DNA of 52,651 bases from a virus (taxonomy: Duplodnaviria; Caudoviricetes), in IMG/VR virus record IMGVR_UViG_3300025508_000025, positions 1 through 52,651 of that record. One strand, written 5' to 3'. The translations under genes and the position numbers were made by a program. Below, piece by piece: positions 27,152 through 42,613 of the stretch. How positions within the stretch are numbered: the stretch's first letter is position 1; each line of letters opens with the position of its first letter. The notes below the pieces were generated by a model. It was not told where the DNA came from. It searched no databases and worked only from the letters and a program-made list of their open reading frames with translations.

Positions 27152-27365
27152 CTTCCTCCATTAACTTTTCTAACCACCCTGCCATTTGAAATCCATTTGA
27201 ATCATTATCAGGGTTTGTGTACACCACATTCTTTACATCTTTTACCAATGTCTTAGGCAAGTAATACCTATTTGCAATATCAGTTAAAATCTGTAACAAC
27301 TCTTCTCTGTCTACGCCTTCTGCCCATTGCTTGACTTCATCGTAATTCACATCATCTTTAACCAT
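27132..27365 (-). CDS. Hypothetical protein
   Basis: Overlapping chain with neighbours; GAGG SD. Confidence 0.55.
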   Translation of the reverse strand: MVKDDVNYDEVKQWAEGVDREELLQILTDIANRYYLPKTLVKDVKNVVYTNPDNDSNGFQMAGWLEKLMEEDDVNGN

Positions 27366-32817: not shown

Positions 32818-32874
32818 TTTTAATAAGTAACTACTAAAAGTAGTAAGTATAAAAAGAAATGTAAGGGAGGTCTT

Positions 32875-34647
32875 ATGCAAAGTCAAGAGGTAAGTGATAT
32901 TAGAAGTCACATTAACCACAACAATAAAACAGGTGACATGGGTCAGGGTCAGTACAAGATTACTTGTCCTAGTTGCCAAAACAACAGAACAAAAAACAGA
33001 ACAGACACCCCACTAAGTGTCAATATTAATTCAGAAACCATAGTTTATAATTGTCATCATTGTGGAATCAATGGTGCATTTCCAAGAACACAAGGAGTTA
33101 AAATGTCAGTCGTCAAAACACCACCAAAGAAACCAATGAAGCCAATCAATCTACCCAAAGAAACCAAATCAGATAAGACTGCTCAATGGTTATTGGCACG
33201 AGGAATTAGTCAGGAGGTAGCGGAGGATTGTGGTTGCGTCTTGGCAGAAAAAAATAATTTACCAGTCATAGGTTTTTCTTTCCACGATGGTTCTAACACT
33301 ATCGCAGTCAAATGGAGAACAGCAAATGGTAAGAAAGACTTTTGGTGGGATAACAACGCAGTCAAACTATGGGGTAAGCAAACTTTCAAAGATGATTTGC
33401 CAACAGTTGAATCAACGATTGTAATTACAGAGGGAGAGATGGATACCCTTGCAATTAAAGAAGCGTTCAAAAATCACAGCAACATTACAGTTTACTCAGT
33501 TCCAAATGGAGCACCAAACAAAGTAGCAGATGACAAGAAGGTTGACCCAAATGAAGAGGGTAGGTTTAAGTATGTGTGGAGTGAGAGAGCAAAGTTCGAG
33601 GATGTTGAGAGGATTATTCTTGCCACTGATATAGATGATAGTGGAGATGCCTTGGCACAGGAGTTGTCAAGGAGACTTAACAAGGCTAGATGTTATAAGG
33701 TTGATTACCTTGGACATAAAGATGCGAATGATCTATTAATAGAGACAGATGCTAAGACTGTTAGACAACAGATACTTAATGCACAGCCAGTTCCTTTGCA
33801 TGGTCTTAACAACATAGACTTTTACGATAAGGAGTTCCAAACTTTGTATGACCAAGGATATCCTAAAGGAGTAAGCACAGGGTTTGCCCAAGTAGATAGT
33901 CTATTTAATTTGCAGACAGGTTATCTTGCAGTGATCACAGGCTATCCTTCGGATGGTAAGTCAGCTTTTGTTGATCAGTTGTGTGTGAATGTAGCCAAGA
34001 ATTACGGATGGAAAACAAACTACTGTTCTTTTGAAAAGCCACCAACACTTCATGCAATTCAGTTAGCACAATGTTTTACTGGTAAACCATTTTTTGAAGG
34101 GCAGAATGCACGGATGACCCAAGAAGAAAAAGACTTCTCGCAACACTTTATCAACGAACATTTTTTATTCCAAGATTACCAAGATGGAGGGATGCCCACG
34201 ATTGAAAGAGTTCTAGAAAAAGGAGCAGATGCAGTCATGAGATATGGGGTAAAGATACTTGTCATAGACCCATTCAATTTTATCCAGTCCAATCATCAAG
34301 GTTTAGTCACAGATGCTATCTCTGAAATGCTTACGAAAGTTCAGTTGTTTTGCAAGAAATTTGATGTGCTTTGTTTCTTTATTGCTCATCCCACCAAACC
34401 TTTTGTCAGGGATGGCAAGAAGAATGTTTGTACTGGGAATGATATCAGTGGAAGTAATGCTTGGTTCTCTAAATGTGATACAGGATTGACAGTTTATCGT
34501 GGGGAAAGTAATGTAGAGATACATTGTTGGAAGCAAAGGTGGGCATGGTGTGGAAAAACAGGTAACACCAGTCTAACTTTTGACCCATTGAGTAATAGAT
34601 ATGCAGAAGAAGAAGTCTTACATGACGATTATGACTGGGAATTCTAA
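32875..34647 (+). CDS. T7 gp4/Twinkle-like DNA primase-helicase
   Basis: Zn finger CPSC...CHHC; TOPRIM ITEGEMD, ATDID, HKDAND; Walker A GYPSDGKS; LVIDP; IAHPTK. Confidence 0.9.
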   Translation: MQSQEVSDIRSHINHNNKTGDMGQGQYKITCPSCQNNRTKNRTDTPLSVNINSETIVYNCHHCGINGAFPRTQGVKMSVVKTPPKKPMKPINLPKETKSDKTAQWLLARGISQEVAEDCGCVLAEKNNLPVIGFSFHDGSNTIAVKWRTANGKKDFWWDNNAVKLWGKQTFKDDLPTVESTIVITEGEMDTLAIKEAFKNHSNITVYSVPNGAPNKVADDKKVDPNEEGRFKYVWSERAKFEDVERIILATDIDDSGDALAQELSRRLNKARCYKVDYLGHKDANDLLIETDAKTVRQQILNAQPVPLHGLNNIDFYDKEFQTLYDQGYPKGVSTGFAQVDSLFNLQTGYLAVITGYPSDGKSAFVDQLCVNVAKNYGWKTNYCSFEKPPTLHAIQLAQCFTGKPFFEGQNARMTQEEKDFSQHFINEHFLFQDYQDGGMPTIERVLEKGADAVMRYGVKILVIDPFNFIQSNHQGLVTDAISEMLTKVQLFCKKFDVLCFFIAHPTKPFVRDGKKNVCTGNDISGSNAWFSKCDTGLTVYRGESNVEIHCWKQRWAWCGKTGNTSLTFDPLSNRYAEEEVLHDDYDWEF

Positions 34648-35646: not shown

Positions 35647-35804
35647 TCCTATATTCTAAGTGAAATGCAATCAAATTGAAAGCTGTTCTACATGGAACAC
35701 GCAAACAAATGGATCGCAGCCCAGAAAAAAATAAATATTATTTACCCGTCTGGGAAAAGTTCTAGCCAAAAAGTTCATTGGAGTATGGACTATCACTCAC
35801 TACC

Positions 35805-35838
35805 AAAAAAAAAGGGTAAACATCTCTGCTTACCCTTT
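35805..35838 (-). terminator. Intrinsic terminator
   Basis: GGGUAAGCA-GAGA-UGUUUACCC followed by U9 on minus strand. Confidence 0.7.
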
Positions 35839-35947
35839 AAAAATCTAACTAATTAGACTTGGAGGTCTCACTCTTATGAAGTGATTGGAAAGGCGTTGTA
35901 TTTGGATTGTTCCTTTAATGCTCATCCAGTTTTTGAGCAACCTTATG
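35805..35947 (-). ncRNA. Putative small RNA with anti-SD loop
   Basis: Promoter TTGCAA-16-TATATT (35981-35954); hairpins UGCUCA/UGAGCA and AGAC-CUCCAA-GUCU; intrinsic terminator; 5' end inferred. Confidence 0.45.
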
Positions 35948-35984
35948 ATTCTTAATATACATGAATGATTGCAGATTGCAAGAC

Positions 35985-36016
35985 TTATTAACAGTTTATC
36001 CACAGGGTTATCCACA
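35985..36016 (+). promoter_or_regulatory. Tandem DnaA boxes (putative origin or regulatory site)
   Basis: TTATCCACA at 35996-36004 and 36008-36016; TTATTAACA at 35985-35993. Confidence 0.7.
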
Positions 36017-36247
36017 GCCGAATACCAGTAAATAAAATATATTTTCAAAAAAAAACTGGGATGGTAAGAAATTTACTGCAACCCATCAAAGTTTATATAC
36101 CAGTAAATATATTTTTTTTTCAGCAGGGTAAACAAAAATCCCCCCCCTCTTCTACAACCCCAGTAAATTCTATATACCAGTAAATATTTTTTCTCCCTGT
36201 AGAAAAACACAGCCGTTGGATGCCCTTGAAACACCTTATTTTGAGCC

Positions 36248-39071: not shown

Positions 39072-40053
39072 GCTTTTTTCCTCCAAAGGCTTTTCCAAGA
39101 AAACCACCTTTAAGAGAATCAGCAGACTCTTCCAACTTCTTAGCTAAGTCTTTTCGCTTCTGTTCAGCTAAAGCATCATCTTCTCTCAGAGAGTCAATGC
39201 CATTGTTGTATCCATTAAACGTAGAAACAACGCTAACCAGTTTTTGATGAGCATCAGCAATATCTTGATCGTTACCTAAAATATCAGCGTTGATATTTGG
39301 TAAAGACCCAGTTAATTTTTCCAGTGCTTTAAAACTGGAAGCATTAAAGAAACCTTTTTGTTTCTGCTTGGGGTCATATTCCCTCAATTTTTTTGCTAAA
39401 TGATCAGTCTGTTCAAGGACAGCATCAACAGTGGTTTTAAGAACATTCTTAATATTATTGTTGATTCTATTCTTGACATCATTTTCTATCTTAGACCTTA
39501 ACTTCTCTGATACATTCAAACGAATGTCAGAGCCATATTGAGGAACAGTAGATATCTCAAATTCAAACTTAAACTTTCGTCTAAGTGAATCGAAGTCAGG
39601 GTAATCACATTCGTTGAATGCTTTACCTAAATTTCTTTTGGCTTGTTCCATTTTTTGTGGATAGCTTTTAAGAAACTCATCTACTTCTTTATCCCAAATC
39701 TGCTTTGCATCATCCACTTGATTCTGCAATGACTCTAACTGTGAGTTAGGGCATAAACGCCACCCACTCACAACCTTGTCATCCATATCAGTAGAATTAT
39801 CTGCCCAAGGCAAAGTCATCGGATAGTAATAATCATTCCTAAACTTATTTAAAATGTGGCGAAAATATTTGTTAATATCTTCTCCATAAATATGCTTAGA
39901 AACACCCAGTAATCTCTCGCTAGATACTTCAGTATCTATCGCTAAATCACGCTTTAACCTTTTATCTGTTCTGATTCCGCTAGGATGCTTCGCAGTCATG
40001 CGAACCAACACAGCATTCTCAGACAGAGTATTAGTCAATTTTTCTTTATCCAT
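39064..40053 (-). CDS. DUF3150-like protein
   Basis: TLPW...GWRL, DYP...LRRKFKF; lies between AAA and vWA genes; start MDKEK. Confidence 0.55.
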   Translation of the reverse strand: MDKEKLTNTLSENAVLVRMTAKHPSGIRTDKRLKRDLAIDTEVSSERLLGVSKHIYGEDINKYFRHILNKFRNDYYYPMTLPWADNSTDMDDKVVSGWRLCPNSQLESLQNQVDDAKQIWDKEVDEFLKSYPQKMEQAKRNLGKAFNECDYPDFDSLRRKFKFEFEISTVPQYGSDIRLNVSEKLRSKIENDVKNRINNNIKNVLKTTVDAVLEQTDHLAKKLREYDPKQKQKGFFNASSFKALEKLTGSLPNINADILGNDQDIADAHQKLVSVVSTFNGYNNGIDSLREDDALAEQKRKDLAKKLEESADSLKGGFLGKAFGGKKHD

Positions 40054-40083
40054 AATAAGAACCTCCATTCTTTATTAGAAAAT

Positions 40084-41239: not shown

Positions 41240-41310
41240 ATTAATAACCTCCAAAGTTTTTATGATTCAAGTTAGTTTCAGCTACCAATAAATATTATTT
41301 ACCAGTAACT

Positions 41311-41372: not shown

Positions 41373-41714
41373 TTAAGTAATGGTGTTAGAGACAAATTCA
41401 TCATTTGGATTTTTCCAACAATCTCTAGACATAAGACCATTTTCTAAAATGTATTCCAAATGCTTAGTGGCATTTTTAATGTTATTAAACATTCTTGCCC
41501 TTGCTCCACTTTCATCACATAGATATTCATTATCTTTTGCTAAAAAATAATAACTTCTATTTTCTCCATACAATTCTTTTATTAATTCATATTCATTCCA
41601 AGAATAAATATGAACATCAATCTCATTATGTGGTTCTACTATTCGCTTGTTATCTCTCCAAACTTTCCACTGTTTAGAGATAACTTTTTTATTAGACCAT
41701 TTAATTTTATCCAT
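41373..41714 (-). CDS. Hypothetical early protein
   Basis: GGAGG SD; flanked by hammerheads. Confidence 0.65.
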   Translation of the reverse strand: MDKIKWSNKKVISKQWKVWRDNKRIVEPHNEIDVHIYSWNEYELIKELYGENRSYYFLAKDNEYLCDESGARARMFNNIKNATKHLEYILENGLMSRDCWKNPNDEFVSNTIT

Positions 41715-41743
41715 AATTTTTGACCCTCCAAGGTCAGTTAATT

Positions 41744-41804: not shown

Positions 41805-42059
41805 TTAAAAAGTGTTTTTATCCCATTCAGGATTAACATTTTTTTCATCCCAATCCATATCCAATTGATTCAATAAGAATATTGTTGGCAAATAATCGTC
41901 ATGTTGATTACCCCAATCTTCCTCATAGGTTTCCAATTTTCTTTTGTATATGTCTAATGCTTTCCATAAAATCAGACTTGTATCTTCATTTACAGTTAGC
42001 TGTTTAGTCATAATTACCTTTGGCGTTTTCATACCAATTTGTTTATTTTCTTTTTGCAT
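41805..42059 (-). CDS. Hypothetical early protein (84 aa)
   Basis: Start MQKENK at 42059 with GGAGG SD. Confidence 0.6.
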   Translation of the reverse strand: MQKENKQIGMKTPKVIMTKQLTVNEDTSLILWKALDIYKRKLETYEEDWGNQHDDYLPTIFLLNQLDMDWDEKNVNPEWDKNTF

Positions 42060-42090
42060 AATTTTTGACCCTCCAAGGTCATGTTTAATT

Positions 42091-42593: not shown

Positions 42594-42613
42594 AAGTTAA
42601 ACCTCCAAGGTTT

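Follow-up and report, generated by a model that had tools for sequence, protein, structure and literature searches.

What use would a tailed phage have for a short transcription unit that keeps no open reading frame (ORF) and lies among replication-origin-like elements? The question is raised by the IMG/VR virus record IMGVR_UViG_3300025508_000025, analysed here as a whole record of 52,651 bp (the window; ~89% complete), in which ~142 nt of the minus strand (35947-35805) lie between a promoter and an intrinsic terminator. The unit probably specifies a trans-acting small RNA (sRNA) with an anti-Shine-Dalgarno (anti-SD) seed, which would repress translation of the neighbouring upstream operon by occluding Shine-Dalgarno (SD) sequences. 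An earlier note on this DNA had proposed a trans-acting anti-SD RNA aimed at ribosome-binding sites (RBSs) that are displayed in loops; conservation of the unit and co-variation between seed and RBSs strongly support this proposal, but the kissing loop that the note placed on the sRNA itself is unsupported.

Anatomy of the sRNA unit

The unit begins with a sigma-70-like promoter on the minus strand (35954-35981), which consists of TTGCAA (35981-35976), a 16-nt spacer, and TATATT (35959-35954) and matches 9 of 12 consensus positions. The predicted RNA would start 7 nt past the -10 hexamer, at 35947, and end with the U-run, at 35805. A 5' hairpin that varies among relatives would precede the seed ACCUCCA (35860-35866), whose target complementarity in the window extends to ACCUCCAAGU (35866-35857); a second hairpin, AAGUCUAA-UUAG-UUAGAUUU (35841-35860; hairpin 2), follows immediately 3' of the seed. 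The intrinsic terminator (35805-35838) has a 12-bp stem (35838-35811), a 4-nt loop, and a T-run of 9 that lies partly within the stem and reaches 35805; the U-run is present on the minus strand alone. Read along that strand from 36290, the order is a strong terminator of the leftward operon (36290-36255, ~270 nt before the unit), iterons, DnaA boxes, promoter, ~142-nt transcript, and terminator. Promoter and terminator thus stand where the earlier note had placed them, and its statement that the ~140 nt between them hold no credible ORF is borne out by the comparison with relatives, where no ORF is conserved on either strand. Terminator-like sites are more frequent than expected (7 versus 2.0±1.3); promoter-like sites are not enriched in this region (8 versus 12.6±3.7 expected from shuffles), and the promoter hexamers alone therefore prove nothing.

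Conservation across related phages

Relatives were collected in two largely overlapping sets. The first consists of 46 contigs, 45 found through the primase at 98-56% identity and one through an exact 21-mer; the second comes from a profile search that yielded 299 primase relatives in IMG/VR, the best 80 of which were examined. The unit occupies the same place in 44 of the 46 contigs, and the other two end ahead of the site. In the wider set it is found in 73 of 80 loci, five of the remainder being truncated and two (L111 and L155) lacking it; 62 loci have a palindromic promoter, and 11 more have a CCUCC unit behind a different sigma-70-like promoter. The conserved order is DnaA boxes, promoter, variable body, ACCUCCA, hairpin, and terminator. 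All 22 unique homologues that were modelled have a -35 hexamer, a 16-18 nt spacer, and a -10 hexamer, while the body between promoter and seed ranges from ~20 to 190 nt, with indels and wholesale replacements.

Very little of the sequence itself is retained. In an alignment of 16 representatives, mean column identity is 48% and only ACCUCC(A) and the U-run are invariant; across clades (A/U)CCUCC(A/U), the U-run, and the folds persist, and CCUCC is invariant in all homologues. The one sequence-conserved part of the predicted RNA would then be a mostly single-stranded anti-SD seed, ACCUCCA(AGU) in the window and (A/U)CCUCC(A/U) clade-wide. The terminator is conserved as a structure, with 11 pairs recovered by RNAalifold from the 16 representatives, 10 of them showing compensatory changes.

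The seed falls in differing reading frames among homologues. A minus-strand small protein was rejected as the product, the only candidate being a 26-aa ATG ORF that is confined to the window group (listed in L010, in a longer form, and in L051; in the window the same frame opens from an upstream GTG). A coding product on the plus strand was rejected as well: the SD-like word opposite the seed is followed by 0 to 22 codons, and the ORF is often absent. Rfam 15, which includes the C4 antisense RNA, gave zero matches over the whole window; with E up to 10 over 35700-36100, the best match was the L20 leader at 18.9 bits, against a gathering score of 58.7.

Single-sequence folds of the 22 unique homologues (85-185 nt) consist of one or more 5' hairpins, the seed, hairpin 2, and the terminator. 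Hairpin 2, with differing stem sequences, was read from the fold output in the minimum free energy (MFE) fold of 17 of the 22; MAFFT could not align it, and the support for it comes solely from these single-sequence folds. The mean probability of the seed being unpaired is 0.70 versus 0.39 for all 7-nt windows, with lower values in the window group (0.49) and in L009/L046 (0.28), and the seed of most homologues occupies an unpaired linker that joins two hairpins. The words of the hairpin AGAC-CUCCAA-GUCU, which the earlier note had drawn around the seed, are present at 35868-35855, but the 4-bp stem is outside the MFE fold and is not conserved; only the window group and L044 could form a comparable stem. 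Neither this nor the position of most seeds in a linker supports a kissing hairpin on the sRNA side.

Complementarity to the upstream operon

The operon just upstream of the unit, on the same strand (37.4-42.6 kb), encodes a MoxR-like ATPase, a VWA/DUF2201 protein, a Gp96-like protein, and small proteins; it also encodes a DUF3150-like protein, a weak match under the Pfam cut-off. Its RBSs are unusual in reading UUGGAGG or AUGGAGG, often in hairpin loops, whereas other genes have A/G-AGGAGG, and all six occurrences of TTGGAGG on the minus strand of the window are RBSs of this operon. The seed is predicted to pair with the SDs of seven genes. The longest match is upstream of a 120-aa gene (start 37451), whose RBS, ACUUGGAGGU (37466-37457), complements ACCUCCAAGU at every position; this 10-mer occurs once per strand in the window. 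Nine nucleotides match in CUUGGAGGU (42601-42609), which precedes the gene at the head of the operon (138 aa, Kyanoviridae Gp96 family, start 42593). Eight match in CUUGGAGG before the 84-aa gene starting at 42059 (42070-42077) and again before the 113-aa gene starting at 41714 (41725-41732), both within the loop of a UGACC/GGUCA hairpin, and in UUGGAGGU (41247-41254) before the 349-aa MoxR-like ATPase gene (start 41239). The complementarities of 8 to 10 nt confirm those in the earlier note. To them can be added matches of 7 nt in UGGAGGU (40061-40067), in the loop of an AAGAA/UUCUU hairpin before a 329-aa gene (start 40053), and in UUGGAGG (39080-39086), before the 477-aa VWA/DUF2201 gene (start 39071); all seven RBSs are on the minus strand.

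The seed fits seven of the eight GGAGG RBSs of the operon over 7-10 nt. Other GGAGG RBSs in the window match it over 5-6 nt, save those of the primase (8 nt) and of a doubtful 69-aa ORF (7 nt). Among 20,000 random 143-nt windows of the genome outside the operon, 1.2% had a complement of at least 10 nt to any of the eight operon RBS regions, and 0.2% reached the summed match of 62. Because promoter hexamers are not enriched and CCUCC complements any SD, the complementarity within the window is by itself only suggestive.

The comparison of six complete genomes (the window and G001-G005) extends it. In all six, the fit between the cognate seed and GGAGG RBSs of the upstream operon spans 7-10 nt, while RBSs of the downstream operon on the same strand, and most elsewhere, are A/G-AGGAGG and match over 5-6 nt; the mean cognate match is 7.3-8.4 nt for the upstream operon versus 5.0-6.25 nt for the downstream operon. 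The loops that the earlier note had seen on the target side are real in this comparison: 23 of 38 operon RBSs, versus 2 of 44 other GGAGG RBSs, have their SD loop enclosed by a stem of at least 4 bp (Fisher p=2e-8, relatedness uncorrected). These stems co-vary, as GACC/GGUC, GUCC/GGAC, AUUC/GAAU, AAGA/UCUU, and CUAA/UUAG, and many target SDs would be displayed in hairpin loops of 6-7 nt. The U or UU before GGAGG is probably not explained by the host 16S tail, because other genes of the phage use canonical AGGAGG; these flanks would suit the sRNA better than the canonical 16S tail. Pairing with the seed would hide the SD and so repress translation of the operon.

The RBS of the primase/helicase gene, GGAGGUCU (32855-32874), complements the 5' flank of the seed, AGACCUCC. 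Of 19 unique seed/RBS pairs, 18 match over 6-8 nt; this RBS, which has the best predicted energy (-8.2 kcal/mol), may be a further target, or a chance match.

Co-variation of seed and RBSs

The nucleotides on either side of the invariant CCUCC change together with those around GGAGG in the upstream operon. Of the upstream RBSs that go with a CCUCC-A seed, 101 of 128 have U directly before GGAGG, versus 12 of 60 RBSs in the downstream operon. For CCUCC-U seeds, as in the ACCUCCU clades (L135, L156, L158, and L159/160), the preceding nucleotide is A in 20 of 36 upstream RBSs and U in 7. One position further out, CCAA seeds go with UUGG RBSs (window, G003, G004) and CCAU seeds with AUGG, in five of five UGGAGG-type RBSs in G001 and with a mixed pattern in G002. 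The 5' flank of the seed behaves alike, with the pairs AAU-CCUCC/GGAGG-AUU, UUGA-CCUCC/GGAGG-UCAA, AUUA-CCUCC/GGAGG-UAAU, and ACA-CCUCC/GGAGG-UGU. Individual loci show how far the fit can extend: the seed AAUCCUCC of L144 is matched by GGAGGAUU in seven of eight RBSs, UUGACCUCC in L135 goes with GGAGGUCAA, AUUACCUCC in L149, L151, and L153 with GGAGGUAAU, and ACACCUCC in L159 with GGAGGUGU.

When seeds and operons were permuted over 26 seed types, the cognate mean match was 7.50 nt versus 6.68±0.14 nt permuted, a value that none of 100,000 permutations reached, in figures that ignore the relatedness of the clades. On a primase tree CCUCC has three changes at its 3' neighbour and two at its 5' neighbour. 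With the 3' neighbour, the RBS majority shifts in step in ~2.8 of 3 independent pairs and never goes the opposite way; with the 5' neighbour it does so in 1.6 of 2 pairs, with 0.1 opposite. An earlier tree gave two changes for the second nucleotide. At the level of sequence, the unit has the general features of a trans-acting sRNA: its own promoter and Rho-independent terminator, no conserved ORF, a conserved accessible seed (though 0.49 unpaired in the window itself), and target complementarity that is kept by co-variation.

Evidence against repression by the sRNA, and alternative explanations

Several observations weigh against a trans-acting repressor of the upstream operon. The CCUCC core complements any SD, so that specificity rests on 2-5 flanking nucleotides. 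The association between 3' neighbours of seed and RBS (chi-square p=5e-8) is uncorrected and, like the permutation, ignores relatedness; the independent changes on the primase tree are so few (3 and 2) that a sign test (p=0.25-0.5) cannot reach significance. The fit fails in places: the L154 seed fits none of the RBSs of its own operon through the 3' neighbour, the fit is poor in L120, L125, and L109/L110, and the L037-39/L140 clade has mostly AGGAGG RBSs, its 10-nt matches being limited to UAUGGAGGUAAU-type sites (one such site in L038, two such rows in L139/L140). Predicted energies do not single out the targets. Accessibility-corrected helix energies are -3.7 to -7.7 kcal/mol for six of nine operon RBSs and -0.2 for one, with two lacking a favourable helix, and controls overlap these values (primase -8.2, the gene at 27159 -6.7 kcal/mol); the helix scan behind them, which includes opening energies, could not tell targets from controls. 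The seed in the window is half open, at a probability of being unpaired of 0.49 versus a background of 0.45. In L012, L019, L041, and L042 no U-run follows the long 3' hairpin, and the 3' end must there be formed in another way, or the RNA would read through. Lastly, metatranscriptomes weigh neither for nor against the transcription that the unit would need. The search matched 16 runs, 8 of them recorded as RNA, and four marine runs (X1-X4) were compared; their contigs cover 35776-36143 plus iterons, give no strand, ends, or level, and may stem from DNA carry-over. One contig joint, from 35888 to 35966 with 38 other letters between, is a natural L003-type variant of the 5' body.

Other explanations of the locus account for less. 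ACCUCC is the canonical anti-SD word, and an RNA that carries it could mimic the 3' tail of 16S rRNA and titrate strong SDs of host mRNAs, or of all mRNAs, for host shut-off, with no special tie to one operon; the four or five distant clades with the canonical seed ACCUCCU fit such a general role. It is nevertheless improbable, since the seed flanks co-vary with RBS flanks of one operon and not with those of the other operons of the phage, which keep A/G-AGGAGG and match over 5-6 nt only. The same flank specificity argues against the host-wide shut-off that the earlier note had entertained. A transcript that activates or primes replication, its sequence serving no pairing function, would sit well among the DnaA boxes and iterons that surround the unit in the window and in many relatives. 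Such a transcript leaves the invariant CCUCC, the unpaired seed, and the co-variation with RBSs unexplained, and no DnaA box lies beside the unit in ~10 of 44 contigs, which makes it a quite improbable sole function; the origin-transcript and sRNA roles could coexist.

Two explanations remain. The RBS cassettes of the operon are repeated almost verbatim, and the plus strand opposite the seed reads ACUUGGAGGU, 10 nt, AUG AAG UGA, as expected if the locus were a by-product of these cassettes, either an inverted copy of an RBS hairpin kept by recombination or a plus-strand SD decoy or mini-ORF. A by-product of this kind is very unlikely given that promoter and U-run are on the minus strand, that the terminator shows compensatory changes, and that the plus-strand ORF, with 0-22 codons, is often absent; gene conversion across 7-12 nt also seems unlikely. 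The last explanation is a cis element, which could be the 3' untranslated region of the upstream operon, a tail processed from it, or an attenuator acting on the 118-aa gene downstream. The unit shares its orientation with both neighbours, and contigs from RNA libraries span 35855-36143. Against this, the upstream operon already stops at the strong terminator 270 nt ahead of the unit (36290-36255), a conserved promoter belongs to the unit itself, and in 18 of 19 orthologues of the 118-aa gene a separate -10 hexamer lies 6-8 nt ahead of the ATG; a cis role is accordingly very unlikely.

Origin-like surroundings and neighbouring elements

Two perfect DnaA boxes, TTATCCACA (plus strand, 35996-36004 and 36008-36016), lie ~15 nt upstream of the -35 hexamer of the sRNA promoter, adjoining it as the earlier note had reported; the window holds three perfect boxes in total. 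Beyond them, AT-rich iteron-like repeats of the ATACCAGTAAATA type extend over 36022-36207, with a spacing of ~75-77 nt and in three repeat families, and the region around the sRNA gene is a putative replication origin. A perfect DnaA box is found within ~150 nt of the unit in 34 of 44 unit-bearing contigs, so that the link to DnaA boxes drawn in the earlier note is common but not universal. The origin position and the boxes 15 nt from the -35 hexamer suggest that the sRNA might be coupled to replication, through DnaA or through gene dose.

The palindrome TTGCA-N3-TGCAA (35969-35981) overlaps the -35 hexamer of the sRNA promoter and is the sole copy in the window at zero mismatches. Relatives have a similar word, TGATAGCA-N3-TGCA, which points the opposite way and lies upstream of their 118-aa gene, and the two could be a shared operator for some regulator. 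The 118-aa gene (MFAVIRHT...; minus strand, 35646-35290) lies directly downstream of the sRNA and has orthologues in 18 other clade representatives. The TATAAT-like hexamer in 18 of the 19 orthologues ends 6-8 nt ahead of the ATG, so that the mRNA would be leaderless and without an SD. An AlphaFold model of the protein (pLDDT 84.3) matched no PDB fold at E <=0.001, and the protein was rejected as a recognisable RNA chaperone or repressor on that ground. Between this gene and the sRNA terminator is the motif (T)GATAGTC (35788-35795), which recurs after the terminator in relatives, sometimes doubled, and also lies within terminator stems of some clades; the window holds 4 copies versus 2.15 expected.

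Opposite the sRNA, 10 nt past the SD-like word, the plus strand contains the mini-ORF ATG AAG TGA (35876-35884), present in the window and six close relatives (including L002, L008, L010, L046, and L051). Two-codon mini-ORFs of this kind resemble the bar minigenes of lambda.

The first gene of the operon has a conserved leader of ~100 nt (minus strand, 42703-42591) with four hairpins, P1-P4, and copies of the leader also occur in L047, L048 (two), L050, L051, L055, L059, L060, L062, L063, L065, and L068. P1 bears a CCUCCA loop, a second, cis anti-SD word ~60 nt ahead of the RBS loop UUGGAG; in P2 the loop GAAUUAAC is invariant and three pairs co-vary; P3 is GAGAAUCC...GGGGUUC; and P4 is the RBS hairpin. 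A hammerhead ribozyme was considered for this leader and rejected: the leader does contain CUGAnGAG...GAAAC, words that recall a hammerhead core, but it has two additional A before GAAA, and Rfam hammerhead models gave no match to the leader even at E up to 10.

A broader scheme would join these elements into a private translation code for the operon. The flanks of its loop SDs would be tuned away from the 16S tail and towards the phage sRNA; the sRNA gene, being in the origin, would rise in dose with replication and act as a replication-coupled timer that silences the operon; the leader with its CCUCCA loop would add a second, cis layer at the first gene; and the leaderless adjoining gene would escape control. 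As a whole the scheme is speculative and rather unlikely.

The phage and its relatives

The window encodes terminase, portal, and head proteins, a Sak-like annealing protein, and an exonuclease, along with a T7-gp4/Twinkle-type primase-helicase (32875-34647). By terminase the closest isolates are phages 023Pt_psg01 and DSL-LC04 and the Pelagibacter phages HTVC027P and HTVC023P (51-59% identity); the host of DSL-LC04 is recorded as Gammaproteobacteria. No close DNA relative was found among isolated phages; the replication and leftward-operon modules lack a close cultured relative, with at most 34% identity in isolates for the leftward operon. Genome contigs scanned with the primase in search of a host gave no match. 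An alternative genetic code was rejected by eye, the long ORFs of the window being open under table 11. G005 (L077, L079-L080) has an intact MoxR-like ATPase gene at 962-2002 and a second copy, interrupted by stops, at 59876-60703, near the opposite end of the record.

Relation to known regulatory RNAs

The nearest phage precedent is c4 of P1 and P7, related to the CI RNA of P4, which is reported to be a trans-acting phage sRNA that pairs around an RBS and blocks translation, with complementary words thought to lie in loops (PMC12197685). The likeness is that a phage-encoded small RNA acts on an mRNA of the same phage at the RBS, an action here predicted from sequence. The c4 RNA has one target (icd/ant) and specific words, whereas the seed described here has an anti-SD core and fits 5-8 RBSs of an operon; the origin context is a further difference, as is the lack of a match to the Rfam C4 family.

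The pattern of conservation recalls the cuckoo RNAs of alphaproteobacteria (CcsR; RSs0680). These are reported to be chromosomal RNAs in which an anti-SD-like word is the only conserved part, the stems varying with many compensatory changes, and in which CCUCCUCCC occupies the loop of each of 2-4 adjacent hairpins (PMC4615179). What is shared is a conserved anti-SD-like word amid freely varying stems. The phage unit differs in being phage-encoded, in having flanks matched to a defined operon, and in carrying, in place of 2-4 hairpins with CCUCCUCCC loops, a single CCUCC(A/U) between hairpins, mostly in an unpaired linker. Nor is it one half of a kissing-loop antisense pair, as loops are found on the target side only (23 of 38).

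RNAIII and RsaE of Staphylococcus aureus and 6C of Mycobacterium tuberculosis are multi-target regulators; RNAIII is reported to arrest translation, and accounts of 6C and RsaE name C-rich loops or pairing with G-rich targets (PMC2837412, PMC6158497, PMC6486639). These RNAs differ from the phage unit in being bacterial, with UCCC or C-rich loop motifs and dispersed regulons. SD pairing is the mechanism of 6C and RsaE; we know of no set of hairpin-loop RBSs in one operon that co-evolves with any of the three. The logic of the locus has further parallels. CopA/CopT of R1 and RNA I of ColE1 place an inhibitor RNA beside an origin, its dose rising with copy number, and RegB of T4 silences early mRNAs through GGAG SDs. 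The likeness is in logic only, the plasmid RNAs being cis-antisense and fully complementary and RegB a protein endonuclease.

The predicted RNA would act in the manner of c4 and of anti-SD-motif sRNAs, but it belongs to none of c4, cuckoo/CcsR, RNAIII, RsaE, and 6C. What sets it apart among these is that an anti-SD seed encoded by a phage co-evolves with the hairpin-loop RBSs of one operon, and no description of this RNA was found in the literature searched (supplementary files outside its scope).

Significance

Few phage-encoded sRNAs have known targets, and the best-understood ones belong to temperate coliphages and act on one gene each. Comparative genomics alone here defines an RNA family that has no Rfam match and is widespread in an uncultured clade of marine phages, and it yields a predicted multi-gene regulon together with natural compensatory variants. 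If repression by the seed is true, lytic-type marine phages control a whole operon by an anti-SD riboregulator with co-evolving hairpin-loop RBSs, and synthetic biology would gain a compact orthogonal sRNA/RBS pair.

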